Assembly (NCBI GenBank): GCA_963678315.1
Contig: OY782781.1
Coordinates: 1,184,001-1,248,000, forward strand
DNA length: 64,000 nt
From: Candidatus Cloacimonadales bacterium
GTDB lineage: Bacteria > Cloacimonadota > Cloacimonadia > Cloacimonadales > JAFGVF01
Direction of reading: 5' to 3'
Part shown: positions 18,641-60,614 of the stretch, one piece after another
Layout: every line of letters starts with the position of its first letter
How positions within the stretch are numbered: the first letter of the stretch is position 1
Position numbers and translations under genes: made by a program
The notes under the pieces: generated by a model
Databases searched by the model: none
What the model was told of the DNA's origin: nothing
Seen by the model: only the letters and a program-made list of their open reading frames with translations

Positions 18641-19153
18641 ATCCCAAGCTCTGGGACAGCAAGCAACAGTCTTAGCCTGTCAAAGTCCTTGCTTGCGAAA
18701 GACGAACAGCCGTTCGTCTATATAATTTGGTAAGCATGAACTATGTTCAACCTAGCGGTGGATGCTTACACTCCTATGTCCAGTCCTAAATAATTTGACT
18801 GTTTTTCGTGTTATTCGTGCTTTTCGTGGTAAACTTCTCTGTTTGCAGATAAAGCTTAGCCTTTATGTCGCCCTTTCAGTGCTTTTTTTATTTTTTAACT
18901 ATTACATGGAGGGCAAGCCTCCATGCTTAGTATATGCCACCCCTTCGGGGTTTTTATGGATAGCAACTCCTCAATTCTCCAATAAGTTTAATTCTTAATT
19001 CTACATTATCAATTCTTTGCCGGCTATCCGGCAGTAGCCGGACTAAAGGCAAAGCGTTCCCAGTAACTTTCTAAATCCTCACTCCTAACTCCGTCCTTAC
19101 TTGCCTCCTTGAAAAATCGGCTGTTTTTCAAAGAGGCAAGTAATCACCAATTG
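18641..19153 (-). repeat. Intergenic hairpin mosaic A (REP/BIME-like)
   Basis: Contains the ~185-nt core (18777-18962) as the reverse complement of 31546-31730, plus modules shared with 41344, 50040, 50071 and 62575. Confidence 0.9.
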
Positions 19154-19161
19154 TCCAGGTA

Positions 19162-19458
19162 TTAATCGTAAAGATAGATATGAAGATCTAGCTTGTCATT
19201 CTGAAAGACTATTCCTTCTGCTTCTAACCTAGCTCTTTGTTCTTGTCCAGCAATACCTTTGAGAGATATTTTACCTTGTGAATTAATTACTCTATGCCAG
19301 GGTAAATCGTATTTGTCAGAAGAACTATGAAGTAAATTGCTAACTAATCTAGCAGATCTTGGACTTCCAGCTCTTCTTGCCACTTCTCCATAGGTCAGAA
19401 CTTTACCCTCTGGTATATCTGAGATTATTCTAATAATTTCTTTTGCTAGATCTGACAT
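19162..19458 (-). CDS. atl: Alkyltransferase-like (ATL/YbaZ) O6-alkylguanine-binding protein
   Basis: IPEGKVLTYGEVA...PWHRV (Trp in place of the catalytic Cys of Ogt). Confidence 0.88.
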   Translation of the reverse strand: MSDLAKEIIRIISDIPEGKVLTYGEVARRAGSPRSARLVSNLLHSSSDKYDLPWHRVINSQGKISLKGIAGQEQRARLEAEGIVFQNDKLDLHIYLYD

Positions 19459-22400
19459 TGCTAGTATTGCTCCTAATAACTCTTTGATTTCTTACTTGAT
19501 TATCAGTAGTTGCTACAACTTTGAAGAACATTTTTGTCTCTAAGTCTGGGTTTTGAATGGAATATGACGTCTCTGAAGTATAGATAAAGTCCATGCCTTC
19601 TATATCAAAATCAATTATATCTGAACTATAAATCTTATATCCTATGGCGTTTTCTATTGCTGTCCATTGGAGAAGAAGCTCATTTGCAGTTGTATTTTCC
19701 GTAATGCTGACATTAGGAACTTCTAGTTGTGAATTACTAAATCCAGGTGTTGGACTAGCAAAGACTTGCCAATTATCCCCACCATCAAGTGTTCTTCCAT
19801 AAGAAGTATCGGTTTGCAGAGTAACAGCATCAATAAAGTTCATAGTAACGGCTCCAATAACACTTGTGATTATCAGCGGTTCTCCACTTGAACTAATCTT
19901 GAAGTTAGTATGAATTTCACCATTTGGAGCAGTGATATTGTTGTCAGATGCCCATATTTGGATAAACTCTTGTGGTTGCAATATGTATTCAGGGAACTGC
20001 CATTTGCTTGGATTAAGAGAATCGTCACTAAGATAATAGTCATTAAGTTGAACAGCAATTTGACCATTGTTATATATTTCAATCCAATCAGAATCATTGC
20101 CATAATAGTCTGTGAAGCCCTGACCTGTTAAAGTAGAGTTAGCACTCATAAACTCATTAATAACAATAGATGCTTGCGGTGCAGTGTCAGATACAAAGTT
20201 AGCAGTAAGGGTAATATCCCCAGATAGTGTCACTGTTATGCTATTTGTTGCTTCATTACTATCACCACTCCAACCTTGGAATGAATATCCTCTATTAGGA
20301 ATAGCTTTTATTACAATAGGGAGACCATTAAAATATAGTCCACTCCATGGATAAATGTTTGAAGTATCAACACCTGGAAGGCTTTCATTTACTCTAATTG
20401 TTGAAATTTGAATTATACCCATGCTTTCATCATTAACATTGAGAGAAACATTTGATGTACCGTCAATAAATGGGAACTTTTCAATGAAATGTTGCCTTAT
20501 GTTAGGATTTCTGTCATTTACGAAATTCCTTAAAGACTGAATTTTAGCATCCCATTCTACTAAGTTATCAGGAGAAGACCAACGCTGAGTATGATAAGTC
20601 ATCTCATGACTGATTCTCTCTTTCATCTCTTCGATTAATGGAGCAGTTCTTTCTTCTCTAAAGTTAGAGTTTAGCAAGTCAGCCATTCTGTTTATAAACT
20701 TATTCCTTACTTCTTCTGAACCAATCTTAGGACTGCTATTAGCAGGGTCATAAGGATAATCTCCAAGAAGGCTTCTAGTTAATAGTCTAAACATGTCTTG
20801 CCAGTTATCATGCCAAGTTGTAGCATCCTCAAGAGTGTTATCTGTAGCTGAACCACTATATTCACCTAAGCCACTATCCAAGTCATATAAGAGCCAACGC
20901 CATCTGCCATCATGTCCTCTTCTTGCATCTGGTTGATTAACATCAAGGTGCTTTCTCCACATCCTAAGGTTATTATAGGGCCAGTCATAGTTTGCTGCAT
21001 AGATTTCTGTTGCATAGTAATCAATAAAATTGTTAATATCAATCATGCTTGATAACTGAGCAAATGCTGTAGGTTCAGACATATCATTGTTTTCAAGGAG
21101 ATTACGTAAATCCATAAAGGCTTCATCAGTGCCATTCTCAGCTATAAACTGATTCTGATAAGCAATAATATCAACCTGATCCTCTGGAATACCATAAGTC
21201 TCTTCTATATAGTCTTCATCAAGTCTGTTTCTGATATTGTGTAAGCCCCAATATTCTCCATTAATGAAAACTACAACAGGTTTATATTGCATTCTTTCAA
21301 TATTTAAACCTCCAGCAAGATTGTGTATAAAGGCATCTCTAAAGTTAGTCTTGTTAGAGTCTTGGCCAGAGTTTCTCAGGATAAACTTATGGAACTTGTC
21401 TTGGTTATAGTCTGGGAATAGTTGGTATTCAAACATATCTCCACCATATTCATCCCTAGCATAGAGTCTTAGTGATTTTCTATTTCTTCTTGTAGAAGCA
21501 CCACCATGAATTCTAATACCACATTCACGTGCCATAGATAACTCAAGACCATTGTCAAAGTATTCAACATAAGCTGGACGTTCCCAATCAGGACCTGACT
21601 GATTATAATTAGCATTGTGCCAATCAGTATTATCTGCTTGGAAACCTGCACCGGGTACGTAAATACCTGATTCATCGCTGAAAAGATTATCTTGATCCGT
21701 TGTTATTGAGAATACAGAAAGGTCGAATCTAGAGCTTATCCCTGTTCCAATAAAGTAACTTCTAGTATCAATAGAACTTGGAACATAACCATTCTGGATA
21801 ACTCTGCATTTTAAGACTGTTGCTTTATCTACTATTGATTGGGGTTCAGTCCAGAAATCAGTTTCAGAAAGATAATCCTCTGTTCCTTCAGGAATAGTAG
21901 TTCTAATTGTAGAAATACCATTGGCTTCATTCATTCGAGACGAGATGGTTAATGGTCCAGTATATAGGTTTGATTGAGCAGTCGGTTCAGAACCGTCTAA
22001 AGTATAGTAAATAGAACCAGCAGTGTTGCTGTGTGATAAAGTTACAACTTGTGTATCTTCATAAAAACCAGCATCTAATGACACTGTGCAAGGTTCAAGA
22101 ATTGGCTGTGCAGTAGTAAAGTTTTCTGCATTAGGGGTAGGGGATAAGAAGATTGAATGATAGTGTGGGTTTTCAAATATTCTACCATAAGAAGCATCTT
22201 CAGGTATATAGACTCCTCTAATATGGTCAATTTCATTACTTGCTAGGTCAGAAAAGATTATCTTTTCTCCACTTCTACTGATACTGAAGTTAGTATGGAT
22301 TTCATCTACAATAAGGCTGTCTTTGTTAGAACACCAAAGTAGGTAGTAACTATTAGGATCAAGTATTAATTCTGGGAACTTCCACTTGTTCAAATCTGTT

Positions 22401-25342
22401 TCATCATCCGTTAACATAAATTGGTTGAGATTAATTGGATAGTCTTTTTGGTTCCATAACTCTATCCAATCACTGTAATCTCCTTCTGCATCAGCAAGAA
22501 GTGTTTCATTGTCTGAACACACTTCATTTAGATAGATGGCTTCACTAAAGTTGTAGCTTAATTCATTGTTATTTCCTGGACTTGGATAAGCAACTTCTTC
22601 CCATTGAGAGATATTGTCCCAGCGCCTAGCTTTTGAATAGTTATTGCCACTTACACTGCAAGGAACAGAGTCAATTACACTAATGCTATCAAAGTGTGAC
22701 AGATACAAGGTCTCAGTAGAACTGAGCTTGAAGTTAGTATGCATATATCCATGGTCATCTTGCCTATCTTTGTTATCAGCCCAAAAGAGTAAAATTTCAT
22801 TAGGGTTAATAATTTTATCTTCAATTAACCATTTACCTAGGTTGTTAATATCATCAGAAAGATAGAGTCCATCTAAATCAATTGCATCTAGTCCATAATT
22901 AATGAGTTCGAACCAGTCTCCATCATCTCCTTCATGGTCATCAAAATAATTATCATTAGAAGACATTACTTCGTTAATATAGAGACTATAGTCAGGTAGT
23001 TGATACATAGGATTTAAGAGTCCTGGTGAAGGGGCTAGATACTCATAAATCAAATCACTACCATTTGGATAACGACCCAGACTATAATCAATATCTGTAG
23101 CTTCTGCATAGAAAGTGTTTATGACAGTCTGTCCATCACTAGCCACCAGAATTACTTCTTCTCCTTCCGAAGAGATTGAGAAGTTAGTATGAATTTCATT
23201 ATTTGCGTAAGTTGTATCTGCTCCACTGCACCAAAAAAGAGCTACACTATTAGCAGGAAGTAGAGTATTAGGAATCTGCCATTTTGTATAGTTTTGCCAG
23301 TTATCAGAAAGGTACATTCCACCTAGATTCACAGTTTGATTAGACGCATTGTATATTTCTATCCAGTCAGAAGAAATACCAGTGTAATCTAAATCTTCAA
23401 GTTCACCGTTATTCTTAACTTCATTGATGAAGATATCTTCTATAGGCGCACCATTCAAATTATCTGTGTATGGTGTTGGGGTATTAGAGATTTGCCATGT
23501 ATTATTTAACAGACTATATGATTGATTGTCTCCTAAAATGGAAGTAGTAATATTCGAGTAGTTTCCTCCATCTAAGCCAGTAAGAATAAGGTCTTCACCA
23601 CTTGCTGAAATAGAAAAATTAGTATGGTTCTTCTTGTCTTTTCCAGATGCCCAAACTACATGATATTCATTAGGAAGCAAGGCAATATTAGAAAATTGCC
23701 ACTTGTTTGCTTCAGCCATATCATCGCTTAGTGAGAAGTAGTTAAGATTTATAGGAAATAAGCCATTGTTATGCAATTCTATCCAGTCTGAATAGTTTCC
23801 ATCGTTATCAGTAATAAAGTTCTGGTTCTTAGCCATAACCTCAGTAATTTGAACATCTATACCGCTTGATTGGACTTGATTAAGGCTTCCTGGTGTAGGA
23901 ATTGAAAAGACATTGTGAAACTCAGAGTTAAAAGATGCTCTTCCAAAAGAATAATCAGCTGGAATATCAATAGCTTTGACTGAGTCAATTATGGTTTCGT
24001 AGTCAACAAAAGTTAAATAAACACTTTCACCATCATTATTTAGCTTGAAGTTGGTATTAAGTCCTGGCAATGGGTATTGTTGGTTACACCAGACAACTAT
24101 TCTTTGTCCAGCGGGAATTATAGTATCAGGGAAGGTCCATTTGGTAAGGTCATCTCTATCATCTGATAGAAAATAATTGCTAAGGTCCAAGCTTTCTGTA
24201 CCGGCATTGTATAGCTCAATCCAATCTGATTGCTGACCAAAGCTATCTAAGTAATTAGAATGTGTCCACGAATTATTATTATACATGACTTCTGAAATAT
24301 ATAAATCATTTGGTAATTCATTTGTAGGAGTATTATCATGAAGGAACTCTGTATAACCTATTTCCCATAAGTTAGTATCTGTAGCAGTCCCTCCGTCAGA
24401 AGAGTACCAAACTTTGAAGTTAAGGTGATTATTGATTTTGTATGGAAGAATTGTTGAACGGTAGATATTGTTATCCCAAGCATTCTGTACACCCTGTAAA
24501 ATAGGGCTATCAGCCATAGTCCAATTTATACCATTATCTGAAACAGCTAGATATAAATCACCACCTCTAGGTGCTCCTGAAGGTCCAACAGAAGATAGCA
24601 TATAATATTTCCCATCAATATAAGTTACATCAAGGTGCCATATCTCAAAGCTTCCAGCAATTACGCCTAGGTCTGTAGCTATAGGATCTGACCAGCCACT
24701 AGTAAGATTATCAGAAGTCCTCAAATTAATAGTTCTAGGACTAGTCTTTGTGTTTACTGTCCACATCTTATATTCATTATCGTCTCTTACTAAAGCAGGA
24801 GAAATAACCCTTTCAGTGGAATATCCATCAGTCTCAAGTAAAAATTGATTATCACTCCAGTTGATACCATCAGTAGAATAGACGTATCTGATAGTTTCAT
24901 ATCTCCAACCAGTATGCTCTCTCCAAAATACATACATGGTTTGATTGTCTTCTGACATAATAATATCAGGATCTGAATGATAGTAATTGTTTGGATTGTA
25001 GGAATCATTAAAAGGAGTCATTATTGGATTTACTAACCCTTCAGGTGCTAGCCAGTTTAATCCATCTTGTGAAACTGCTATGGAAGGATTCTCAAATTGA
25101 GCGTTAGAGTTAGGGAATGGTGTGTAAGCCATCCAGTATTGGTAGCCTTGCCAGCCTTCTTCAAAATAAACTACATCTGGGTGAACAACTTCATTGTTAC
25201 CTTCAACATAGGATTCTATTGCTAAAGGTTCATCAGCATTATCAGCTTGATAACCATTTATATCTTGATGAATAACAATACTATACAGGTTTACGACCTG
25301 AAACAAAATAAAACAGCAAATATTTATCAACAACCTTTTCAT
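19430..25342 (-). CDS. Large secreted CotH-kinase-family protein with an N-terminal glycosidase-like propeller and six lamin-tail domains
   Basis: Signal peptide, six (I/L)(N/S/T)E(V/F)...DW(I/F)E(L/I)xN repeats, IYYTLDGSEP. CotH motifs GIRIHGG, KSLRLYAR, NGEYWG, NYDWPYNN and WRWLLYDLD. Confidence 0.85.
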   Translation of the reverse strand: MKRLLINICCFILFQVVNLYSIVIHQDINGYQADNADEPLAIESYVEGNNEVVHPDVVYFEEGWQGYQYWMAYTPFPNSNAQFENPSIAVSQDGLNWLAPEGLVNPIMTPFNDSYNPNNYYHSDPDIIMSEDNQTMYVFWREHTGWRYETIRYVYSTDGINWSDNQFLLETDGYSTERVISPALVRDDNEYKMWTVNTKTSPRTINLRTSDNLTSGWSDPIATDLGVIAGSFEIWHLDVTYIDGKYYMLSSVGPSGAPRGGDLYLAVSDNGINWTMADSPILQGVQNAWDNNIYRSTILPYKINNHLNFKVWYSSDGGTATDTNLWEIGYTEFLHDNTPTNELPNDLYISEVMYNNNSWTHSNYLDSFGQQSDWIELYNAGTESLDLSNYFLSDDRDDLTKWTFPDTIIPAGQRIVVWCNQQYPLPGLNTNFKLNNDGESVYLTFVDYETIIDSVKAIDIPADYSFGRASFNSEFHNVFSIPTPGSLNQVQSSGIDVQITEVMAKNQNFITDNDGNYSDWIELHNNGLFPINLNYFSLSDDMAEANKWQFSNIALLPNEYHVVWASGKDKKNHTNFSISASGEDLILTGLDGGNYSNITTSILGDNQSYSLLNNTWQISNTPTPYTDNLNGAPIEDIFINEVKNNGELEDLDYTGISSDWIEIYNASNQTVNLGGMYLSDNWQNYTKWQIPNTLLPANSVALFWCSGADTTYANNEIHTNFSISSEGEEVILVASDGQTVINTFYAEATDIDYSLGRYPNGSDLIYEYLAPSPGLLNPMYQLPDYSLYINEVMSSNDNYFDDHEGDDGDWFELINYGLDAIDLDGLYLSDDINNLGKWLIEDKIINPNEILLFWADNKDRQDDHGYMHTNFKLSSTETLYLSHFDSISVIDSVPCSVSGNNYSKARRWDNISQWEEVAYPSPGNNNELSYNFSEAIYLNEVCSDNETLLADAEGDYSDWIELWNQKDYPINLNQFMLTDDETDLNKWKFPELILDPNSYYLLWCSNKDSLIVDEIHTNFSISRSGEKIIFSDLASNEIDHIRGVYIPEDASYGRIFENPHYHSIFLSPTPNAENFTTAQPILEPCTVSLDAGFYEDTQVVTLSHSNTAGSIYYTLDGSEPTAQSNLYTGPLTISSRMNEANGISTIRTTIPEGTEDYLSETDFWTEPQSIVDKATVLKCRVIQNGYVPSSIDTRSYFIGTGISSRFDLSVFSITTDQDNLFSDESGIYVPGAGFQADNTDWHNANYNQSGPDWERPAYVEYFDNGLELSMARECGIRIHGGASTRRNRKSLRLYARDEYGGDMFEYQLFPDYNQDKFHKFILRNSGQDSNKTNFRDAFIHNLAGGLNIERMQYKPVVVFINGEYWGLHNIRNRLDEDYIEETYGIPEDQVDIIAYQNQFIAENGTDEAFMDLRNLLENNDMSEPTAFAQLSSMIDINNFIDYYATEIYAANYDWPYNNLRMWRKHLDVNQPDARRGHDGRWRWLLYDLDSGLGEYSGSATDNTLEDATTWHDNWQDMFRLLTRSLLGDYPYDPANSSPKIGSEEVRNKFINRMADLLNSNFREERTAPLIEEMKERISHEMTYHTQRWSSPDNLVEWDAKIQSLRNFVNDRNPNIRQHFIEKFPFIDGTSNVSLNVNDESMGIIQISTIRVNESLPGVDTSNIYPWSGLYFNGLPIVIKAIPNRGYSFQGWSGDSNEATNSITVTLSGDITLTANFVSDTAPQASIVINEFMSANSTLTGQGFTDYYGNDSDWIEIYNNGQIAVQLNDYYLSDDSLNPSKWQFPEYILQPQEFIQIWASDNNITAPNGEIHTNFKISSSGEPLIITSVIGAVTMNFIDAVTLQTDTSYGRTLDGGDNWQVFASPTPGFSNSQLEVPNVSITENTTANELLLQWTAIENAIGYKIYSSDIIDFDIEGMDFIYTSETSYSIQNPDLETKMFFKVVATTDNQVRNQRVIRSNTSNVRSSKRNY

Positions 25343-25552
25343 TAAACTCTCTCCAAAGCTTTTTTATTTCTTTAATTAAATTTATATCTTTTAAGTTAAT
25401 ATAGTTTAAAGTGAGATAATTGTCAATATTTTATATATCCTAAATGTTGATAGTCCATAAGATAATTCATTTAATTCTACATAATATGGTTTTCATTTCT
25501 ATATTTAGAATTGATTATATTGCAGTAAATAATTAATTACAGTTTAAAAGAA

Positions 25553-25626
25553 AAAACCTTGTTATTGATAACTATCAAAAAGCTCACTACAACTTCTTAA
25601 ATTATTACCTTCATAACAAGGTTTTA
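25553..25626 (-). terminator. Long-loop inverted repeat followed by a U-tract
   Basis: AAAACCTTGTTAT...ATAACAAGGTTTT with an A-run on the left. Confidence 0.4.
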
Positions 25627-25654
25627 AACTATATTCACTAAATTACAAATCTGG

Positions 25655-25878
25655 CACTTAAACATATATAAGGGACGATATGAGTAAGTTTGCTCGTGCC
25701 TAGTATATTAGCTAAATATACAATAATCCGAAAAGTTTGTTTTATCAATTGATATCTAGTGAGTGGTGAGTTGTTCAAGTTGAGTGGTAAAAAAAGATAT
25801 TGGATGGTTGGAAGAAAGACTATTGATAATCTTGGGTCTCCTGCATAAAATGCCAAATTAATGCAGGGGGCAAGTAAG
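25655..25878. repeat. Degenerate hairpin mosaic G
   Basis: CTCCTGCAT...ATGCAGGGGGCAAGTAAG (25831-25878) is shared with 41243, 49907 and 62491. Also a GGCAC...GTGCC hairpin. Confidence 0.7.
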
Positions 25879-25905
25879 CTTTTAGTCTTTTACAAAGAAA
25901 AGTCC

Positions 25906-25943
25906 AAAAAAAAAGGTTACCGTCTCTCACCTCGGTAACCTTT
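25906..25943 (-). terminator. fusA terminator
   Basis: AAAGGTTACCG...CGGTAACCTTT with an A9 run. Confidence 0.8.
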
Positions 25944-25973
25944 ATTAACTTAAAAAGGGGGATTTATTATTAT

Positions 25974-28049
25974 TTATTTCTTATCTTGATTATTCTTTCT
26001 AATCTCTTCTAACATCTTTTCTTCCATTTGTTTTGGAACTCTTTTGTAAGAAGCGAACTCTAATGAGAATTCAGATTTACCTTGAGTTAAAGATCTTAGA
26101 ACAGTTGGGTAACCAAAGATTTCTGATAATGGAACTTCAGCGATAACTCTTGTGAAAGCATCATCAATTTCAGTATCAAGAACGATACCACGTCTTTGGT
26201 TGATAGAGCCCATCACGTTTCCTCTAAATTCAGAAGGAGTTTCGATTTCAATCTTCATGATAGGTTCCATTATATAAGGACTTGCCTTTCTATAAACTTC
26301 TTTGAAAGCAGCTTTTGTAGCAACTTCGAAAGCCATTTGTGAAGAGTCAACTGGGTGATAAGAACCATCGTTAAGTTCTAATTCAACACCAACAACAGGG
26401 AAACCTGTTAACTCACCTTTTTCAAGAGAAGCTCTAAAACCTTTCTCTACTGAAGGGATGTATGTACCAGGAATTACACCACCAGTGATCTTATCAAGGA
26501 ATGATGAATCACCTTCAACAGGTCTGATAAGACCAGCAATCTTAGCAAACTGTCCACGACCACCAGATTGTTTTTTGTGAGTATATGAGAATGCTGTTTC
26601 CACACCAATAGATTCTCTATAAGAAACTTCTGGTTGTCCAGTTTCGATATCAACTTTATATTCTCTTTTCATTCTTTCAATATAAACATCTAAGTGAAGT
26701 TCACCCATACCAGAAATGATTGTTTGACCTGATTCTTCATCAGTTCTATATCTGAAAGTAGGGTCTTCTTTGGTGAATCTATTTAAAGCTTTACCCATGT
26801 TGTTAAGAGATTTCTTATCTTTACAGGTAACAGCTAAAGAGATGATAGGTTCAGGAACGTACATTGATTTAAGTGAAATCTTTCTATCACCAGAAACAAA
26901 AGTATCACCTAATGAACAATCAACACCGAAGATAGCGATAATATCACCTGCTTCACCTTGGTTGATATCTTCCATAGAATCAGAGTGCATTCTGATAAGT
27001 CTACCAACTTTGATTCTCTTGTTAGAAGAAATATTAGTAATGTCAGAACCTTTCTTTAAAGTACCTTGATAGATTCTAACATAAGTAAGCTGACCATAAA
27101 CTTGGTTATCAAGTTTGAAAGCCATAGCTACTAAGTCTTCTTCTGGAGAATGAGAAAGTTCGATTTCAACATCACCATTATCAACATCGAATGCTTTGTT
27201 AGTAACATCGTTTGGAGCAGGTAAATATGTCAAAACAGCATCAAGAAGTGTTTGAACACCTTTGTTTTTATAAGCAGTACCCATGAATACAGGTGTTAAA
27301 TCTCTAGAGATTGTACCAATTCTAACTGCTTCATTGATTTGTTCTTCAGTTTCGTTACCTTCTAAGAAAGCTTCCATTAATTCTTCTGAGAACATAGATG
27401 CTTCATTGATAAGCTCTTCTCTTTTTTCTTCTGCTAAGTCAACTAAATCAGCAGGAATATCTGCATATACTATTTCGTCGCCCTTAGGACCTTCATAGTA
27501 AACAGCTTTCATTTTAACAAGGTCAACAACACCTTCAAACTTTTCACCTGTTCCGATAGGTAATTGCATCATTACAGCGTTTCTTCCTAATTTCTCTCTA
27601 ACTTGAGAAGCAACTTTGAAAGGATCTGCACCTTGTCTATCCATTTTATTAACGAATACAACGTTTGGAACTTCATATCTTTTTAACTGTCTGTCAACAG
27701 TGATAGTTTGAGACTGAACACCACCAACACTACAAAGAACAAGAATAGCTCCATCAAGAACTCTAAGAGCATTCTCAACCTCAATTGTGAAGTCAACGTG
27801 ACCAGGTGTGTCAATGATGTTTATATCGTAATCTTTCCAGCTAACACTTGTAGCAGCTGAAGCAATTGTGATTCCTCTCTCTTTTTCTAATTCCATTGAA
27901 TCCATTGTTGCACCAACACCATCTTTACCACGAACTTCATGAATTGCATGAATTTTTCCTGTATAATACAAGATTCTTTCAGTTAAGGTTGTCTTTCCTG
28001 AATCAATGTGAGCACTGATTCCAATGTTCCTTAATTTTGTAATGTCCAT
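25974..28049 (-). CDS. fusA: Elongation factor G (spdEFG1/mtEFG1-type)
   Basis: [46 protein letters not shown]. Confidence 0.95.
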
Positions 28050-28234
28050 TTTGTTTCCTTTTTTTTATTCCTTTGATTATTAATTTCATTTTTGTTTCGA
28101 CTTATTGAGTTGCAAAAAAAAAATTTGATTCTAATTTAGCAAGAAAAAAAATATTTACAATTTATTGATGATAAATTTATTGTTGTCTAAAATACTGTAA
28201 ATTTGGAATAAAAATGACATAGGAGAGCTCTTTT

Positions 28235-30610
28235 ATGCTTAAAAAAAACTTTTTTCTACTAATATTTCTAACACTTTTTTTGGGGTTATTTGGGCAATAT
28301 CAACAACCAAATAAACAAATTGTTGATATTTACGAAACACCAAAATCACCATATATAACAACTAAAGACTTAACAAGACGTTTTTTTGAAAGAAGAATTG
28401 ACTATGATATATCTTTAAATGAGCTTGCAGATCCTGTAATAGAGTTAGCGTCCAGAAGATTTTCTAAGAAACTTAATGCTAAGCGTGAATTTTATCCAAC
28501 AAGCCAATTAAGAATCCTAGACTTAGATAATGAAATAGATTTAAATGTTGATTTATCAGACTACAATAACATTAGAACTATATACAATTCTTATGACTAC
28601 TCTAAAGCAGTAATGACTCACGACTTTGAAGATGGAGTCGGCATGGTTCTTGTTGATTTTGAGACAGGGAAGACTAAAGAATTCAAAGGGATAAGACTTA
28701 ATGGTGCTATGGGCGATCCATCTGTTACTTGGTTTGCTGATAATAGACGTGTTTTAGTGAGAACACTGGTAAAGGATAGGGGAGAAGAACCTAAGTTTAA
28801 TTCTGCTCCTAAAAGTCCTATAATAGAAGAAACGGAAGGTAAGGTAAGTCAGTTAAGAACTTACACTAAACTTCTTAAATCTCCAGAAGATGAAGTTTTA
28901 TTCGATTATTATTTTACAAGTCAATTAGCAGTCTTGGATACTAAAACAGGTAAGTTAAAAAAGCTGGGAGAACCTGGTATCTATAAGTCAGCATCTCTTT
29001 CCCCAAACAACAAGTATCTTCTTGTGAAAACAGTTGAAAGACCCTACTCCTATGAAGTTCCTTATTACTATTTCCCATCTACAAGCCAAGTATGGAACCT
29101 TAAAGGCAAGGTCTTACAAGATATAATACATTATCCATTGCAAGATGAAATTCCAATAGGGGGGACTTATTCTCAAGCTCGTTATCATTATTGGTTGCCT
29201 ACAGAGAAAGCAACACTTATTTGGCTTGAAGCCCAAGATAATGGCGACCCTAAAGTAAAAGTCCCTTATCGTGATATTTGTTATACTTCTACATATCCTT
29301 TTAAAGAGAAGACAGAACTATATAGAACCGAATACAGAGCTTCAGGCCCTGACTTCTTTGATAATAATAAGTATTGTACATACACAGAATATGATAGAGA
29401 TAGGATTTGGTATAGACATTGGTTATTGAATCTTGAAACAGGTAATGCAAGCATTATAACAGATGCTTCAGCTAACAATTCTTATGCTGAAAAGGGTGAC
29501 CTTTATACTATATGGGATAAGAATAAGAATAGTGTAATATTGACTAATGGCGATTTTATCTACTTCAAGAATAATACAGGTGCTACTCCAGAAGGTAATA
29601 GACCTTACATTGCTTCTTATAATATTAAAACTAATGAATTCAAGAAGCTTTATCAATCAAATCTTGATTCTTATGAACAAATAATTGATTTTACTAATAA
29701 AGAACTCACCGAACTGTTAGTTGCTGTTCAGACTAAAGAAAAGCCAAGAAACTACTTCTTAGTTAATTTAGAGACTGGTGAAAGAACTGCTGTGACTAAC
29801 TACCAAGACCCTTATCCTGAATATGCTCACTTGAAGAAAGAACTAGTTAAGTATAAGAGAAGTGATGGAGTTGACTTAAATGGTATACTATATTTACCTC
29901 ATGATTACCAAGAAGGGGATAAGCTTCCTCTTGTAATTCATGCCTATCCAGAAGAATACACTAATAAATCTGATGCTGGGCAGGTTACGGGAACAGATAA
30001 AACATTCACTTGGTATTATGGTTCAAACATTAAGTACTTTGCCATGAATGGTTATGCCGTCTTGTATAATGCTTCAATCCCTATTGTTGGCGATCCTGAA
30101 ACAGTTAATGATACTTACATCGAACAGCTTATAGATGGTGTCCAATCTGCTGTTGATTATCTTGATAGCAGAGGTGTTATCGATACAACAAAAGTAGGTA
30201 TCATCGGTCACAGTTATGGTGCTTTCATGGTGGCTAATGTTCTTGCTCATTCAGATGTTTGCCAAGCTGGTATAGCTAAAAGTGGAGCATATAACAGAAC
30301 TCTAACTCCTTTTGGATTCCAAAGCGAAAGAAGAACTTTTTGGCAAGCTAAAGACTTTTATGTAAATGTTTCCCCATTCAGTAATGCTGATAAGATTAAT
30401 GAACCAATACTTCTTATTCATGGTGAGAAAGATCCTAACTCTGGTACTTATCCGATGCAGTCTAAGCGTCTCTATAAAGCTATCAAAGGTAATGGTGGAA
30501 CTTCTAAGCTAGTTATCTTACCTCTTGAAGAACATAGTTATAAAGCAAAAGAATCCCAGCTCCATGTTCTTTATGAAATGATGAACTGGTTCGACACATA
30601 CTTAAAATAG
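28235..30610 (+). CDS. S9 prolyl-oligopeptidase-family peptidase (S9D glutamyl-endopeptidase-like)
   Basis: GHSYGAFM, YNRTLTPFGFQSERRT, HGEKDPNSGT, E.HSY. Signal peptide. Confidence 0.88.
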   Translation: MLKKNFFLLIFLTLFLGLFGQYQQPNKQIVDIYETPKSPYITTKDLTRRFFERRIDYDISLNELADPVIELASRRFSKKLNAKREFYPTSQLRILDLDNEIDLNVDLSDYNNIRTIYNSYDYSKAVMTHDFEDGVGMVLVDFETGKTKEFKGIRLNGAMGDPSVTWFADNRRVLVRTLVKDRGEEPKFNSAPKSPIIEETEGKVSQLRTYTKLLKSPEDEVLFDYYFTSQLAVLDTKTGKLKKLGEPGIYKSASLSPNNKYLLVKTVERPYSYEVPYYYFPSTSQVWNLKGKVLQDIIHYPLQDEIPIGGTYSQARYHYWLPTEKATLIWLEAQDNGDPKVKVPYRDICYTSTYPFKEKTELYRTEYRASGPDFFDNNKYCTYTEYDRDRIWYRHWLLNLETGNASIITDASANNSYAEKGDLYTIWDKNKNSVILTNGDFIYFKNNTGATPEGNRPYIASYNIKTNEFKKLYQSNLDSYEQIIDFTNKELTELLVAVQTKEKPRNYFLVNLETGERTAVTNYQDPYPEYAHLKKELVKYKRSDGVDLNGILYLPHDYQEGDKLPLVIHAYPEEYTNKSDAGQVTGTDKTFTWYYGSNIKYFAMNGYAVLYNASIPIVGDPETVNDTYIEQLIDGVQSAVDYLDSRGVIDTTKVGIIGHSYGAFMVANVLAHSDVCQAGIAKSGAYNRTLTPFGFQSERRTFWQAKDFYVNVSPFSNADKINEPILLIHGEKDPNSGTYPMQSKRLYKAIKGNGGTSKLVILPLEEHSYKAKESQLHVLYEMMNWFDTYLK

Positions 30611-30654
30611 TAGCTTTTCTTTAGTTCAATGATTTATAAAAAGGATGTGTTAAA

Positions 30655-31344
30655 ATGAGAATAGCTGGATTACAGAAGTTTTCTATGATTGATTATGATG
30701 ATAAAATATGTGCAGTCGTTTTTACACAGGGGTGTAATTTATTCTGCCCATATTGCCATAACCCTAAGCTTGTTCCTATGCTTTCCGAAGATGCTTTACT
30801 AGTAGAGGAAGAGGTACTTGGTTTTCTTCAATCGAGGGTAAATAAACTTGATGGAGTGGTTATAACAGGAGGAGAACCTCTTTTGCAAAAGAATCTTATC
30901 CCATTTGTTGAGAAGTTAAAACAGATGGGTTATCTAGTAAAATTAGACACTAATGGAGTCAGACCAGATCTCTTAGAAAATATACTTAAGCTCAATATCT
31001 TAGATTATGTTGCAATGGATATTAAGACAGCACTGGATAAGTATGAACAAGTTGTAAAGGTTAAGGTTGCTCCTGAAACTGTAATCAAGTCTATCCAGTT
31101 GATAAAAGATTCAGCTATAAATCATGAATTTAGAACTACTCTTGTCGATGGCTTGATTTCAGAAGAAGATATTTATTCTTTAGTTAACTATATTCCCAAA
31201 GGATCTAGCTACTATCTTCAGAATTTTCAACCCTCTGAACACTTAGATTCTTCTTATAAGAATAGGGCAGGCTTCTCTGACGAAAGAATGGAGCATTTGA
31301 AATATAGATTACAAGAAAAGAAAATTAATTTTAGATTAAGATAG
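30655..31344 (+). CDS. nrdG: Anaerobic ribonucleotide reductase activating radical SAM protein
   Basis: GLQKFSMIDY, GCNLFCPYCHNP, VITGGEP, KLDTNG, EFRTT. Confidence 0.85.
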   Translation: MRIAGLQKFSMIDYDDKICAVVFTQGCNLFCPYCHNPKLVPMLSEDALLVEEEVLGFLQSRVNKLDGVVITGGEPLLQKNLIPFVEKLKQMGYLVKLDTNGVRPDLLENILKLNILDYVAMDIKTALDKYEQVVKVKVAPETVIKSIQLIKDSAINHEFRTTLVDGLISEEDIYSLVNYIPKGSSYYLQNFQPSEHLDSSYKNRAGFSDERMEHLKYRLQEKKINFRLR

Positions 31345-31454
31345 AAATCAAGATTCGTTTAGGAAATATGATACTTAAGAAGCTATGCTAGTTTATTGTC
31401 AGCTTGAGCTTATCTCTTAACTTAGTATGAAACGTTTTTGATGTCTAACTGCTT

Positions 31455-31856
31455 CCTTACTGGTCTCCTTGAAAAAAAGCCGATTTTTCAAGGGGGCAAG
31501 TAAGGAAGGAGTTAGAAGTGAGGAGTTAGAAGTGAGGAATTAGAATATCCATAAAACCCCGAAGGGGTGGCATATACTAAGCATGGAGGCTTGCCCTCCA
31601 TGTAATAGTTAAAAAATAAAAAAAGCCCTGAAAGGGCGACATAAAGGCTAAGCTTTATCTGCAAACAGAGAAGTTTACCACGAAAAGCACGAATAACACG
31701 AAAAACAGTCAAATTATTTAGGACTGGACAGGGTGATTGCTGTATTAGACCTGAAAGGACGTCATGTATTAAGCCAGGGCCGTGTCAGGCCTTGACTGAG
31801 TCTTGTACCCCATGTAAATTAATATAAACAAATTGAGTCGCGAAAGGACGACATAG
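31455..31856 (+). repeat. Intergenic hairpin mosaic B
   Basis: Long hairpin, heptamer tandem GAGTTAG/AAGTGAG, core 31546-31730, and a second degenerate GAA-hairpin unit at 31747-31855. Confidence 0.9.
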
Positions 31857-31880
31857 CTTTAACCTTGTCTGTAATTTTTA

Positions 31881-31908
31881 TTGACATTATAGATTAAACA
31901 ATTATAAT
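31881..31908 (+). promoter_or_regulatory. Sigma70-type promoter
   Basis: TTGACA-N16-TATAAT. Confidence 0.7.
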
Positions 31909-31934
31909 AAAGAAACTAATTAAAAAGGTGTGAA

Positions 31935-32954
31935 ATGTCTAGTAAACTAATAGATAGATTAAATAATTCAGATAACAGTATTCCCATCATTGCTATCACA
32001 GGTTTGTGTAAAAATGCTGGAAAAACTTCATTACTAAATTGGATAGTTTCTAATATTCCTGACAATGAAGATGTTGTCTTGATGACAACGGGTAGAGATG
32101 GGGAAGATTTTGACCAAGTTGGAGGTCATGAAAAACCAAAAGTTCTAGTTCCTAAAGGAACTATATTTGTTACTCATGATGGTGTTCTAAGTCAGTTTGG
32201 AGAAAGAATAGAAGTTTTAGAAAAGACTGATTATAAAGCTGGTCCTTATCGAGTTTGGGTTGCAAGGGCACTTGACTCATTAAAGACTGAGATTATCGGA
32301 CCTTCAACAGCTAAAGAACAAATTGAATTAAGCCAAGAACTAAAAAAATATAAACCAGCTAAAATATTTATTGATGGTTCTTTAGACAGAAAGGCAATTA
32401 CCCTCCATCCAGAAGTAGATGAAATAATTGTTGTGTTAAGTGCGAATTTTGGTTCTATTGATAACAATATTGAAGAGCTTAGTCGCTTGCTATTGCTAAC
32501 ACAAATAAGAACTACTGAAACAAACAACATTGCTATTGAAAGCCTGTCACTAATAAAAGAAAATAAGATAATTAAATCTTGGGATAGTCTCTTAGGTAAC
32601 GAAGAAGAATTTGTTAAAGAAGTTAGAAAAGAGTGTCCAGAATACATCTTGATACCAGGAGTTGTAACTAACTCTGTATGGGAAAAAATTAGTAAGCAGT
32701 TAATTGATTTTGGTGGAGCAGTAATAGTGAACCATCCATATCAACTACAATTAAGAAAGTTTGAACTTGAACAGTTAATTAACACAGTGAATATAAAATG
32801 TGTACATGAATTTGAGATAAGTGGTATTGGAATAAACAGTTATTCAGTAAAAGGTAAACACTTGGACTCAGATTTATTTAGATCTCGTATCAGAGAATTA
32901 TGTGATTTGCCTATAGTCGATAGCATGGAGATATTAAATGAAATGTGTAAATAA
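31935..32954 (+). CDS. P-loop protein resembling KamB-like proteins of lysine-fermentation loci
   Basis: GLCKNAGKT, TGRDGE..D.V....KP, IIGP, IDGSLDRK. Confidence 0.55.
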   Translation: MSSKLIDRLNNSDNSIPIIAITGLCKNAGKTSLLNWIVSNIPDNEDVVLMTTGRDGEDFDQVGGHEKPKVLVPKGTIFVTHDGVLSQFGERIEVLEKTDYKAGPYRVWVARALDSLKTEIIGPSTAKEQIELSQELKKYKPAKIFIDGSLDRKAITLHPEVDEIIVVLSANFGSIDNNIEELSRLLLLTQIRTTETNNIAIESLSLIKENKIIKSWDSLLGNEEEFVKEVRKECPEYILIPGVVTNSVWEKISKQLIDFGGAVIVNHPYQLQLRKFELEQLINTVNIKCVHEFEISGIGINSYSVKGKHLDSDLFRSRIRELCDLPIVDSMEILNEMCK

Positions 32955-33834
32955 ATCTGTAACTTTGGGGTTAATTACTAATGTTATTTTTGCAGTAATG
33001 AAGACCCTTATAGGTATTTATGGAAGGTCTCAAGCTTTAATTGCTGATGGCATAAATTCTACTTCTGATGTAGCCTATTATTTAGCCGTTTCTATATTCA
33101 TGAAAAAGTCTAATAAGCCAGCAGACAAAGAGCATCCTTATGGTCATAAACAGTTAGATAATATTGCAGCTATAGTAGTTGGGGCTTTTATTATAACAAC
33201 AGGTGCAACTATATTCTGGAATGCAATAACCACAGTTTATGAGATATTTAGTGGTTCTTATCAAGAATCAAGCAAACCTTTATTTCCTTTAATAGTAGCT
33301 GGAATTACTATAATTACAAAGATGTTCCTATATTTGGATGCTAAGAGCACATATGGTAAGTCTAAAAATCCAACAATACGAGCATTGATGAATGACCATA
33401 TAAATGATTTAATGGCTTCAATTGCTGTATTAGTCAGTTTAGTTATTACTATGATAAATTCTGGTTTATCTTGGGTAGATCCAATCGCATCTTGCTTAGT
33501 AGCTGGATTTATTCTGAAAACAGGCTTTGAAATTATTATTGATTCTTCTAACGAACTTATGGACTCAATACCAGATAACGACTTTGCTCGTCAGATTGAA
33601 AAGATAATTTTGAACCACAGCAATGTCTTTGGTATCACCCATATTGGGGCACATAAGTATGGACCAACTTATGTAATTAATATTACTATTGAAGTTGAAC
33701 CTAGCTTGTCAATTGCTCAAGGGGATATTATTTGTGATAAAATCGAAAACGACCTCTTAAGCAAGTTTGAAGAGTCAGTAAAAAAAGTAAATATACACTT
33801 TCACCCACCTAAGGAAAATAAAACAAGTCTCTAA
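32938..33834 (+). CDS. Cation diffusion facilitator (CDF) transporter
   Basis: SQALIADG, KPADKEHPYGH, DH.ND, DP.A, C-terminal IHFHP. Confidence 0.9.
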   Translation: MKCVNKSVTLGLITNVIFAVMKTLIGIYGRSQALIADGINSTSDVAYYLAVSIFMKKSNKPADKEHPYGHKQLDNIAAIVVGAFIITTGATIFWNAITTVYEIFSGSYQESSKPLFPLIVAGITIITKMFLYLDAKSTYGKSKNPTIRALMNDHINDLMASIAVLVSLVITMINSGLSWVDPIASCLVAGFILKTGFEIIIDSSNELMDSIPDNDFARQIEKIILNHSNVFGITHIGAHKYGPTYVINITIEVEPSLSIAQGDIICDKIENDLLSKFEESVKKVNIHFHPPKENKTSL

Positions 33835-34032
33835 ATGCAAACATAAGGCAATATTTACTTGACTGAAAGAAGATAAAACAAAAAATCCTTGCATATTTCT
33901 TCAAAATTTAAGAAATTGTATCTGTTATAAAATAGGTAACATAAACTCATTAAATTAGATTTGTTGAGTTGTGATTTAGATAGTTCTGCATTGTTAATCA
34001 ATAGTAGAACAAAAGAATTTTAGGAGTATTTA

Positions 34033-34992
34033 ATGAATATATTAATAACTGGTGGAGCTGGATTTATAGGTTCTCATTTAGCAGAGAAACTTCTAGCTCA
34101 AGGAAATAGAGTTGTAGTCTTAGATAACCTATCAACAGGTTCTCTAGATAACGTAAAACATCTAAGAAATAACGATAAATTTGAATTGCATATTGGTTCA
34201 ATCCTCAATGCAGAATTACTAGAATCATTAGTTAAAGAATGTGACATTGTTTATCACATGGCTGCAGCAGTAGGTGTTAAATATATTATAGAAAACCCTT
34301 TATTATCTCTTAGAACTAATATAGTCGGAACTGAGAATGTTCTTGAGTTTGCTCATAAATACAGATGCAAAGTATTAGTCGCTTCTACTTCTGAAATCTA
34401 TGGTAAAAGTGATAATATTCCTTTCTCTGAAGAAGATGACAGGCTTCTTGGCTCAACTCATATCAGTAGATGGGGATATAGTACAGCTAAAGCAGTTGAT
34501 GAATTCTTAGCTCTTGCATATCACAGAGAAAAGAAACTTCCTGTGGTTATAGTTAGATTATTCAATACTGTGGGTCCTAGACAGACAGGCCAATACGGAA
34601 TGGTGATTCCTAAGTTTATTAAAGCAGCCTTGTTAGATCAACCAATCGTTATCTATGGTACAGGAAAGCAAAGCAGATGTTTTACAGATGTAGATGATGT
34701 TTCTGATGCCTTGATAAAATTAATGGCTACACCAAAGTGTGAAGGTAAAATCTTTAATGTAGGTTCAACAGAATCAATCTCTATTGAAGAGCTTGCTCAA
34801 AAGATTAAAAAGGCAGCGAAGAGTCATTCAAAAATTGAATATATGGCTTATGAAGATGTATTTGAAGATGGTTTTGAAGACATGATGAAAAGAATGCCCG
34901 ATATCTCTAAAATAGAAAAGTATATAGGCTATAAAAGAAAACACAATCTAGATAAAATTATTGATAGAGTAATCACATATTATGAATCGTAG
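34033..34992 (+). CDS. NAD-dependent nucleotide-sugar epimerase/dehydratase
   Basis: TGGAGFIGSH, STSEIYG, YSTAK, RLFNTVGPRQ. Confidence 0.9.
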   Translation: MNILITGGAGFIGSHLAEKLLAQGNRVVVLDNLSTGSLDNVKHLRNNDKFELHIGSILNAELLESLVKECDIVYHMAAAVGVKYIIENPLLSLRTNIVGTENVLEFAHKYRCKVLVASTSEIYGKSDNIPFSEEDDRLLGSTHISRWGYSTAKAVDEFLALAYHREKKLPVVIVRLFNTVGPRQTGQYGMVIPKFIKAALLDQPIVIYGTGKQSRCFTDVDDVSDALIKLMATPKCEGKIFNVGSTESISIEELAQKIKKAAKSHSKIEYMAYEDVFEDGFEDMMKRMPDISKIEKYIGYKRKHNLDKIIDRVITYYES

Positions 34993-36421: not shown

Positions 36422-36442
36422 TATATGTTTTAGGAGCTAACG

Positions 36443-41242: not shown

Positions 41243-41388
41243 TAGCCTCCTGCATTAAATGGCGATTTTATGCAGGAGGCTAGTATGTTTATTCTGTATG
41301 ACATAATATATAACGATTGTCTCTGTAGTGTGCATATCTTTGCGTAAGCATGAAGTTTCTTCAACCTACCGGTGGATGCTTACACTCC
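41243..41388. repeat. Hairpin mosaic F
   Basis: TAGCCTCCTGCAT...ATGCAGGAGGCTA (41243-41282) and GTAAGCATG...GGATGCTTACACTCC (41344-41388, matching 18730-18774). Confidence 0.85.
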
Positions 41389-49900: not shown

Positions 49901-50442
49901 TCAAGTGCCTCCTGCATTAATTAACCTTTTTATGCAGGTGGGGCAAGGGCAAGAAGGCAGTAAAGAATTAGGAGTTAGGGGTACTTGGATCACCAGCCTC
50001 CGTGCTGGCTTCACTTAGAAGCTAGTGATAAGTGAATATGTAGAGAGACGAGCGGATGTTCGTCTGTTATGGGTTGCAAGCATCCCTGCTTGCGAAATAT
50101 CATTCATTACGAATGATGTTCATATATGTCCTCTTAAATCATTCAGAAATGATTTAAGATGTGCATTCAGGGATGAATGCACTCCATAAAACCCCCGAAG
50201 GGGTGGTATATACTAGCATGGAGGCTTGCCCTCCATGTTCAATGATATAAAAGTTTTAGTCCCGAAGGGACGTAATATACTAAGCATGGAGGCTTGCCCT
50301 CCATGTAATAGTTAAAAATAAAAAAGCCCTGAAAGGGCGACATAAAGGCTAAGCTTTATCTGCAAACAGAGAAGTTTACCACGAAAAGCACGAATAACAC
50401 GAAAAACAGTCAAATTATTTAGGACTGGACACTCACCAATTG
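49901..50442 (+). repeat. Intergenic hairpin mosaic C (longest, about 14 consecutive hairpins)
   Basis: Core 50183-50431 with a duplicated GAA-hairpin/CATGG unit, preceded by a chain of distinct 20-30 nt palindromes. Confidence 0.9.
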
Positions 50443-59947: not shown

Positions 59948-59972
59948 AACAAAACTTCGTAAAATAAATATT

Positions 59973-59998
59973 GACGCTTTTATAAGCGTCTTTTTTTT
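59973..59998 (+). terminator. Intrinsic terminator
   Basis: GACGCTT-TTAT-AAGCGTC-TTTTTTTT. Confidence 0.8.
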
Positions 59999-60030
59999 AT
60001 ATGTAATTTATTAGATCTAAGGAGAATAGA

Positions 60031-60465
60031 ATGTTAAAAAAAGTAACTGTTGAAACAAGTTTAGCTGGCAACATGGTAATTAATGTAAAAACAGGCAATC
60101 ACTCAATGCTTATTGACCAACCAAAAGCTGGTGGTGGGGAAGATAAAGGTCCAACACCATTACAATATTTCTTAACAGCTCTTGCAGGTTGTATTGGTAG
60201 TATTTCACTTATTATTGCAAAACAAAGAAGAATAAATCTTACTAAATGTGACGTAAAGGTTGAAGGTGAATTAGATACTGATGTTTTAATGGGTAAATCT
60301 AATGATTCAAGAGCAGGATTCCAATGGATGAAGGTTTATGTTGACCTTGATGCGGAAGGTATGACAGCTGAAGATAGAAAAGTATTTATTCATGAAGTTG
60401 ATGAAAGATGCCCTATTTCTGACAATATTGCTAATACATCTAAAATTGAATTTATCGTCGAATAA
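60031..60465 (+). CDS. OsmC/Ohr-like family protein
   Basis: DQP..GGG.D.GPTP, LAGC, RCPISD. Confidence 0.88.
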   Translation: MLKKVTVETSLAGNMVINVKTGNHSMLIDQPKAGGGEDKGPTPLQYFLTALAGCIGSISLIIAKQRRINLTKCDVKVEGELDTDVLMGKSNDSRAGFQWMKVYVDLDAEGMTAEDRKVFIHEVDERCPISDNIANTSKIEFIVE

Positions 60466-60469
60466 ATTT

Positions 60470-60614
60470 ACTGGGAGTGTAGCCATCCCTGGCTAAGCAA
60501 TTCAAGAAGACTGGGAGTGTAGCCATCCTTGGCTAGACCAAGATGGTTGTGTACACAGAAAGAAACCGGTGATGTAAGCATCCGAGCAGTTGCCGGACAC
60601 GATCCTTGCTTACA
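60470..60614 (+). repeat. Hairpin mosaic E: tandem GGAG-headed REP-like units
   Basis: ACTGGGAGTGTAGCCATCC(C/T)TGGCTA twice (60470, 60510), then TGTAAGCA[insert]TCCTTGCTTACA. Confidence 0.85.

Follow-up and report, generated by a model that had tools for sequence, protein, structure and literature searches.

Discrete modules of about 20 nucleotides (nt) lie within the loops of short hairpin repeats in a Candidatus Cloacimonadales genome, and they are independent of the hairpin that harbours them; this holds for the module here called B and less fully for the module called C. The host hairpins are of the type of repetitive extragenic palindromes (REPs). The modules were detected in the window, a stretch of 64,000 nt (contig OY782781.1, genome positions 1184001-1248000) of a genome consisting of one contig of 2,988,751 bp with 32.8% G+C. 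The intergenic DNA of this genome is built of REP-type hairpin repeats that fall into many families, and each family is tied to one of the nine Y1 transposase genes (HUH, IS200/RAYT-like). With a probability of roughly one half, Y1 transposases move or recombine the modules in single-stranded form, the composite of module and host then spreading like any REP. A first-pass annotation of the window had proposed from six sites a class of ~20-nt mobile or templated elements in other hairpins, together with empty alleles. Of this proposal the discrete modules B and C in unrelated hosts stand, but two of the sites (3 and 4) have to be excluded and site 5 is not a simple case. Near-identical units lacking the module do exist, but these empty forms are throughout paralogous copies within one genome, not alleles.

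The micro-inserts of sites 1, 2 and 6 and the core of site 5 (Table 1) each consist of a small hairpin and a 5-nt linker, 19-22 nt in total. Module B (sites 1 and 6) reads N4-TCTTCGC-N4' + CACRG, with a 4-bp stem and a 6-7-nt loop that also occurs as TCTAGC, TCTTAGC and TCAARGC. The stems covary and the loop is constant (ACAG/CTGT 19 copies, TCAG/CTGA 25, ATCG/CGAT 7). The core pattern of the module had 43 matches in the genome, compared with none for the reversed control pattern. In 47 of the 51 linker-bearing copies, a set including seven TCTAGC copies, the module is followed by YCC (38 TCC, 9 CCC, 3 TAC and 1 TTC). Module C reads TCCGGC-N4-GCCGGA and is followed by CACGR or preceded by TTWAG. 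The inserts of sites 2 and 5, which had been noted to share a palindrome in different hosts, are both of this type.

Seven arm variants of TGGGATT/GGAGT-headed hairpins carry module B (GCAAGCA, GTAAGCA, GTAAGCT, GTAGCCA, GCATTCA, GTAACTT and ACAAGCT). It is present also in unrelated hosts, namely the CATGGGGT...ACCCCATG hairpin (10 copies), a TCGAAG-type hairpin (three copies) and the ACTGGGAWCGC-headed REPs (7 of the 207 heads), and in 27 of the same 207 heads module C occupies the slot of B. Across at least four unrelated host families the edges of module B are identical to the base. The module cores are found in several unrelated contexts; restriction to a single one had been named as an outcome that would speak against mobile inserts.

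The inserts of sites 3 and 4 had been placed in the same class of micro-inserts, but they are instead the two-hairpin core of the main REP family beside a Y1 gene. This element, A, is the standard form of the commonest repeat of the genome and the usual compound REP of the Y1 gene located at genome 1121495-1122016. It consists of TCC and two hairpins and occurs only in the GGAGT-GTAAGCA host, in ~103 copies, of which 86 were parsed. The first stem (P2) is ACC/GGT in 56 of the parsed copies, GCC/GGC in 16 and longer in eight, and the second (P3) TGAAC/GTTCA in 72 and TGAAG/CTTCA in 12, both stems having compensatory changes.

An arm-gap census of the whole genome, based on exact 7-bp arms and their reverse complement within 70 nt, divided the arm-to-arm gaps of five related host families into two size classes, 3-4 or 23-33 nt, a bimodality far from chance. 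The short and long gaps numbered 42 and 4 (24 nt) with the arm GTAAGCT, 31 and 6 (23-29 nt) with GTAGCCA, 18 and 106 (24-33 nt, 72 of them 26 nt) with GTAAGCA, 10 and 11 (24 or 29 nt) with GCAAGCA, and 10 and 8 (24 or 27 nt) with GCATTCA. Ten other hairpin families had short loops only, for example ATGGAGG (40 of 40), GACGTTT (32 of 32) and AACCTAC (18 of 18). The insert lengths therefore do not form the continuous distribution that the first-pass annotation had regarded as contrary to its proposal.

Modules were removed in silico from 60 filled B and C sites and the genome was searched for the resulting sequences, with at least 85% identity, at least 25 nt on each side of the junction and at most three gap positions required. 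A paralogous empty copy was found for 16 of the 60 sites. The members of the best pair, genome 846793 and 846597, belong to one array and are 99% identical over 105 nt, their sole difference being the 20 nt of the module. This array (genome 846.5-849.1 kb) comprises two filled units next to each other and, around them, at least four empty ones with 94-99% identity. The CCCATG of the empty CATGGGGT copies corresponds to CCCTRG in all ten filled ones (nine CCCTGG, one CCCTAG). At the junctions of the filled and empty pairs the ACAG variant had no identical nucleotides (0 nt), the TCAG variant had 2 nt and site 2 had 4 nt, and no regular target duplication was seen.

The orientation of module B follows replication, not transcription. 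When the origin (~0.73 Mb) and terminus (~2.0 Mb) were located, by GC skew only, 32 of 35 copies had the strand reading hairpin-CACRG-YCC on the leading-strand side, as did 23 of 26 clusters when copies at most 3 kb apart were pooled (p 9e-5), whereas only 61% of the long open reading frames (ORFs) run in the direction of replication. The module follows replication in eight of nine cases in which it lies between two genes directed against replication, and in 12 of 13 in which the neighbouring genes are convergent or divergent. Such a bias is expected if single strands transpose on the lagging-strand template, as is established for IS608 and ISDra2 (PMC6006769, PMC3333891). A fixed GGGA target on the opposite strand was rejected as a general rule, since it fails in the ACTGGGAWCGC hosts and the strand bias indicates the other strand. 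Open frames of at least 150 codons make up 86.6% of the genome, and these included none of 102 A copies, none of 70 short REPs and three of 35 B copies.

Nine intact ORFs matched Y1_Tnp (PF01797) with 45.7-91.8 bits against a cut-off of 23. Six of them are located within 22 kb (genome 1104220-1126245), some 58-80 kb left of the window. A different repeat family flanks each of the six, and this region looks like a 'RAYT island'. By reading, all nine genes have hairpin repeats on both flanks, and for eight of the nine the repeats cover 22-89% of at least one flank, compared with a genome mean of 3.9%. The inverted orientation of the repeats is plain at the genes starting at genome 795932, 1107162, 1110286 and 1115148, and on both sides of the gene at 1121495 the A elements point in the same direction. 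The IS200-like gene 1107162-1107614 is surrounded by CCCCGAAGGGG...CATGGGGT units, B-filled ones included, the gene at 1110286 by ACTGGGAACGC REPs, among them the C-bearing long form, and the gene at 1121495 by A elements and short GTAAGCT/GTAGCCA REPs including one filled copy of B type. The first-pass annotation had called for an unknown enzyme, but none need be assumed with nine Y1 HUH genes embedded in hairpin repeats, of a kind that TnpA-REP cuts and recombines (PMC3333891). Genes with reverse transcriptase (RT) or DUF559 domains were rejected as partners, the repeat content of their flanks being no higher than the genome mean. The 150-aa type of the Y1 proteins passes the IS200 model of NCBIfam (70.3 against a cut-off of 55), and Y1 genes were present in 32 of the 41 genomes of the order that were searched. 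The repeats are not members of the two named REP super-families, because their heads (TGGGATT, GGAGT, ACTGGGAWCGC) are not GTAG or CGTC.

At the gathering threshold only one Rfam family, Acido-Lenti-1 (RF01687), was matched in the window, and no family for A, B or C. In the whole genome Acido-Lenti-1 had 38 matches at E ≤ 0.01, 16 of them above the gathering score. Here it behaves as a REP-type repeat, being the unit around the IS200-like gene at 1107162-1107614; in a 2026 preprint it is termed 'of unknown function'.

The six filled and the quoted empty sequences of the window are present where the first-pass annotation had placed them (Table 1). Site 1 and the empty REP at 50076 form a clean pair differing by a 20-nt insert between the same GCAAGCA/TGCTTGC arms, and ten further GCAAGCA hosts in the genome carry module B. 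The 22-nt insert of site 2 was as described, with ATCC on each side. It is the single such copy among the 106 long GTAAGCA-armed elements, and a second copy of C with its linker is found in a GCATTCA host at genome 1544245. Also the exact 20-nt difference at site 6 was borne out, being matched by a paralogue at genome 475055-475148. The elements of sites 3 and 4 are real, but their proposed comparators at 60479 and 60519 have GTAGCCA and not GTAAGCA arms; true empty copies of the GTAAGCA host are located elsewhere, for example four at genome 1399266-1399667. At site 5 the long and short forms and the shared TAG hold good, but about half of the 10 nt upstream of TAG differ and the site is no simple insertion; the long form is present in 27 of 207 heads genome-wide. 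When folded as single strands, sites 1-5 (z -2.0 to -4.3) retain the outer stem, on which the inner hairpin is stacked; a 9-nt bulge is left except in A, which adopts a three-way form. At site 1 the inner hairpin is coaxial and the bulge is on the 3' side (z -2.0), and at site 6 the host hairpin is destroyed by module B (z +0.24). Runs of a heptamer-like repeat, AGGAGTT/AGGAGTG, adjoin the ACTGGGAACGC REPs (window 19066-19100 and 62540-62575), and the word is among the abundant 14-mers of the genome.

Table 1. Filled, compound and empty repeats of the window. Positions are window coordinates; z values refer to elements folded as single-stranded DNA.
Feature	Position	Strand	Structure	z
Site 1, filled REP	18659..18700	+	Arms GCAAGCA (18659-18665)/TGCTTGC; module B at 18666-18685 (20 nt), ACAG-TCTTAGC-CTGT + CAAAG; followed by host loop TCCT	
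Site 2, filled REP	60574..60613	+	Arms GTAAGCA/TGCTTAC; module C at 60581-60602 (22 nt), TCCGAGC-AGTT-GCCGGA + CACGA; followed by host loop TCCT	-4.3
Site 3, A element	18730..18774	-	GGAGT head; arms GTAAGCA/TGCTTAC; TCC and two inner hairpins (ACC-GCTA-GGT; TGAAC-ATA-GTTCA); three-way fold	-2.5
Site 4, A element	41344..41388	-	Architecture of site 3 with compensated inner stem TGAAG/CTTCA	-3.4
Site 5, long form of ACTGGGAACGC-headed REP	19016..19065	-	Outer stem CTTTGCC/GGCAAAG; 5x5 internal loop; inner C hairpin TCCGGC-TACT-GCCGGA at 19027-19042	-3.2
Site 6	31777..31814	-	Module B at 31780-31799 (minus-strand reading TCAG-TCAAGGC-CTGA + CACGG) inside CATGGGGT...ACCCCATG hairpin of Acido-Lenti-1-type unit	
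Empty REP	50076..50093	+	GCAAGCA-TCCC-TGCTTGC	-4.8
Empty REP	50163..50180	-	GCATTCA-TCCC-TGAATGC; filled members of this host family elsewhere in the genome	
Two empty REPs	60479..60535 (60479-60495, 60519-60535)	+	GGAGT heads; GTAGCCA arms	
Two short ACTGGGAACGC-headed REPs	62575..62632	+	Loop GCT	-1.3
Empty Acido-Lenti-1-type unit	62671..62717	-	CCCCGAAGGGG ... CATGGGGTCTTGTACCCCATG; host family of site 6; Rfam RF01687, 40.7 bits against gathering score 37	-4.6

Outside this genome, an exact 22-mer of module B was found once each in two of the 231 other Cloacimonadota genomes (G015 and G158), which belong to two other families. In one of them the 22-mer is situated between 5-nt complementary flanks unlike any host seen here, and in the other the pairing of the flanks is weaker. 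In G158 a DUF559 gene is directly upstream of the copy. A 19-mer search of all species genomes gave nine matches, about the number expected by chance, and only the two from Cloacimonadota are credible. The genomes compared included none of the same genus, and module B was present in none of the 11 genomes of the same family, which leaves no outgroup; the host pattern GKGTAAGCA...TGCTTACRC was likewise absent from all 40 relatives. Metagenome contigs provided no usable sister strain, the best EF-G match being 83% identical. When four public runs were compared with window 17401-37400, the contigs ended at the repeat clusters (18805 to 19087; 31479 to 31761), and only one record, of X6, entered a cluster. 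In this contig (window 18659-18754) site 1 is filled, and its filled REP is present a second time as an extra unit of ~81 nt; the number of array units thus differs between populations. The species is represented in the populations of runs X1, X2-5 and X6-8 at 0.6-0.9 of the sampled words.

If Y1 transposases move the modules, a host REP would extrude as a hairpin in single-stranded DNA, the lagging-strand template, and the enzyme would cut at the junction of the 5' arm and the loop, usually directly 5' of YCC. It would then join in a module excised from another copy, without target duplication, and the same chemistry could also take a module out exactly. The composite of module and host would spread as one unit in the manner of a REP. 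The exact edges, the several unrelated hosts, the filled and empty paralogues, the replication-linked bias, the extragenic location and the Y1 genes within the repeats are observed; that a Y1 enzyme is the agent, which of the nine it would be, and the direction of each event are inferred.

Several observations weigh against transposition by a Y1 enzyme. Modules B and C have one hairpin each and not a hairpin at both ends, whereas a Y1 transposon normally has one per end. The left flank of module B has no fixed motif (GCA, CCA, GCT, TCA, GAC and TAA occur), the ACTGGGAWCGC hosts have the linker TTWAG instead of CACRG and no YCC after it, and the C copy at genome 1544245 is on the opposite side of the loop. 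Two of the nine Y1 proteins were scanned against NCBIfam, and the best match of the 173-aa type, REP_Tyr_transpos, reached 62.3 bits with a cut-off of 80. No Y1 gene was found within 1.5 kb of module B in G015 or G158. Among the public contigs of three sister populations, all of which break at repeat clusters, no orthologous filled and empty site was seen. The copies counted for the strand bias are partly related through local duplication. The module variants are also host-specific, so that the real events may be few; probably a few events were followed by spread of the composite, by which most filled copies were later amplified. Finally, in the pair genome 684238/716570 module, loop and one arm base differ together, which resembles replacement rather than insertion, and four repeats (genome 694719, 694986, 697620 and 816382) are chimeras joined inside module B, the left half being of a REP of the ACTGGGAWCGC type and the right half of the GCAAGCA type.

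The last two observations would fit an alternative in which the 20-nt unit itself does not transpose and the modules pass between the REPs of a cluster through gene conversion driven by homology, through unequal recombination or through template switching of the polymerase at hairpins. Copying of loop contents from a repeat to its neighbour would yield mosaics such as the chimeras, and the pair would then have had module, loop and arm base replaced together. Most TGGGATTG-type hosts share heads, tails and five of the seven arm bases, enough for conversion, short identities (TC, ATCC, TAG) are present at some junctions, and the extra ~81-nt unit of the sister population at window 18659-18699 indicates that arrays change by whole units. 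This alternative is nevertheless unlikely: the edges are exact to the base also in hosts without flanking similarity (the CATGGGGT and TCGAAG types and the flanks in the two other genomes), the junctions of the ACAG variant lack microhomology, and double-strand homologous exchange does not predict a strand bias linked to replication. It is very unlikely that the long forms are ancestral and that the short hairpins arose by deletion of the inner hairpin, without any insertion ever having occurred. The GTAAGCA host, in which the long forms prevail (106 against 18), would agree with such deletion, as would the fact that no direction can be determined for any single pair with no outgroup and relatives devoid of the hosts. 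Deletion alone, however, cannot explain one module in at least four unrelated host families, which requires several gains; empty copies outnumber filled ones with GTAAGCT (42:4) and GTAGCCA (31:6) arms, the two adjacent filled units of the array at 846.5-849.1 kb have at least four empty ones around them, and all filled CATGGGGT copies differ from the empty ones in having CCCTRG. An exact loss of 20 nt without flanking repeats would, moreover, itself require an enzyme.

The repeats could also be functional structured RNAs or protein-binding DNA structures with the modules as selected variants, and for C the partner would in that case alternatively be a small single-domain GIY-YIG nuclease of the Ssn kind. 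The covariation in the stems of A (P2 and P3) and B, a G-T pair that lengthens the outer stem of A on one strand only, and the match of one host unit to Acido-Lenti-1 agree with function of this sort; C hairpins occur on both sides of the small GIY-YIG genes at genome 11365 and 14193, and Ssn nucleases are flanked by hairpin repeats of 20-50 nt (PMC11893778). Covariation is equally expected, however, if a transposase reads a hairpin, and about 100 copies per family, arrays, filled and empty paralogues and Y1 genes at the centres of the families are marks of selfish repeats; in addition, no Rfam family was matched by A, B or C in the window. Ssn is a nuclease for which the available part of the source reports no joining activity (PMC11893778), and of five small GIY-YIG genes two are in apparent 23S rRNA and one has no adjoining repeats. 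Selected function as the explanation of the modules is very unlikely. Transposition by Y1 enzymes may be taken further than the observations discussed above: B and C would be transposable units with a single hairpin each and, at 19-22 nt, the smallest mobile DNA seen so far, cut and pasted as single strands by a Y1 transposase of the genome and landing at the arm/loop junction of any hairpin extruding on the lagging-strand template, whether in a REP of another family or, perhaps, in a stem-loop of a tRNA gene copy. This extended form is possible but doubtful.

The C palindrome was observed also within tandem partial copies of tRNA-Asn and tRNA-Met (genome 11069-11751, 14463-14509, 1382748-1382889 and 2769652-2769942). 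It directly follows the anticodon loop, in place of the 3' anticodon stem and the variable loop, and in one case it lies in the T-loop. An intact tRNA-Met is located at genome 1382589-1382664. Just downstream of the tRNA-Asn copies there are small single-domain GIY-YIG ORFs of 86-93 aa (genome 11365-11580 and 14193-14408), with C hairpins on both sides or beside them, and these ORFs and C may form a nuclease-repeat pair resembling Ssn. C hairpins are near these two of the five small GIY-YIG ORFs, inside tRNA-like copies, and not near the other three. Two identical GIY-YIG ORFs of 98 aa (genome 1142681-1142890 and 2788314-2788523) have flanks which, by eye, seem to resemble 23S rRNA, and they may be an intervening sequence or a homing-type insert in both rRNA operons.

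Two further associations of hairpin repeats were seen in the genome. A DUF559 nuclease domain (125 bits; genome 89990-90760) is part of a 765-codon frame with an apparent type I methyltransferase (NPPF motif), and on either side there are inverted arrays of a hairpin repeat of the CCCCTAAAGGGG type. An element of ~1672 bp with 17-nt inverted ends, TCAGACTGCTGACAAAG, is present, for example, at genome 814500-816172, 816474-818146, 1065318-1066990, 2720647-2722319, 2432349-2434021 and 268888-270560; each end adjoins a REP-type hairpin, five hairpin families being used, and in the pairs read the same hairpin was at both ends.

The modules are an unusually small, modular variant of REP/transposase selfish DNA and do not constitute an entirely new system. 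In the REPIN view of how REPs spread and diversify the doublet is the mobile unit; cutting and recombination have been shown in vitro, but in vivo intermediates are scarce. Like the REP/BIME/REPIN-RAYT 'REPtrons' (PMC3333891, PMC8266576, PMC3116915), the repeats described here are short extragenic palindromes in high copy number, with a conserved head in each family, clustered mosaic arrays, and a single-copy Y1 HUH transposase gene around which each family is found. They differ in belonging to the phylum Cloacimonadota, in heads of the TGGGA type instead of GTAG/CGTC, and in the number of Y1 genes (nine, six of them within 22 kb), and the variable unit is a single hairpin of 19-22 nt inside the loop of another REP, not a REP doublet beside another. 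TnpA-REP cleaves and recombines single strands of REP/BIME, and integration has been modelled as recombination with a REP-bearing target (PMC3333891). Short- and long-loop members within one REP family were described by Di Nocera et al. (2013), with inner loops that pair (up to 27 bp in Bradyrhizobium), as were REPs located within other palindromes, hundreds of such targets being empty in Thermomicrobium roseum (PMC3733652). That paper, in the part available, treats loop variants and associations, without one module common to unrelated hosts, exact filled and empty paralogues or strand bias. In the literature searched for RAYT/REP nesting no account of modules inside REP loops was found, and papers beyond it may exist.

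Small repeat modules of 21-27 nt inserted at exact points, SDR1-8, were reportedly described from heterocyst-forming cyanobacteria by Elhai et al. in 2008. One of them, SDR5, is inserted precisely between bases three and four of the HIP1 palindrome (PMC4390886). The modules here are similarly very small with exact insertion points; but the organism is a member of Cloacimonadales, its EF-G being 82-86% identical to that of metagenome-assembled genomes so named, not a heterocyst-forming cyanobacterium, and the targets are loops of REP hairpins with Y1 genes at hand. Identity with cyanobacterial SDRs was rejected on account of the organism.

Shared with the 'peel and paste' movement of IS200/IS605 elements (PMC3333891, PMC6006769) are the absence of target duplication, exact ends, recognition of a hairpin, for most copies of B a short motif at the insertion point, and an orientation tied to replication. 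IS200/IS605 elements have a hairpin at both ends and their own transposase gene, whereas B and C are single hairpins of ~20 nt, with the conserved flank YCC 3' of the module on the replication-following strand. Unlike a miniature inverted-repeat transposable element (MITE), the module is one hairpin and a linker, without terminal inverted repeats or a target duplication of fixed length. The Ssn GIY-YIG nucleases with NTS/SRM repeats (PMC11893778) offer a possible parallel in that a small single-domain nuclease gene lies between oriented hairpin repeats, which are composed of a short conserved sequence and a palindrome, but here only C adjoins such genes, and only at two tRNA-linked loci, and Ssn is not known to have a joining activity.

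The genome thus presents a natural experiment, with nine Y1 genes and their own repeat families, a 20-nt hairpin present or absent between units that are 99% identical, and an orientation bias that follows the fork. For the Rfam family Acido-Lenti-1 it gives a concrete reading, as the repeat unit around an IS200-like gene in this organism. If a Y1 enzyme moves the module, the minimal in vivo substrate of this class of transposases would be one hairpin and five bases, and the loops of REPs would serve as landing pads. The 'complex loops' listed for other phyla would then have an explanation.

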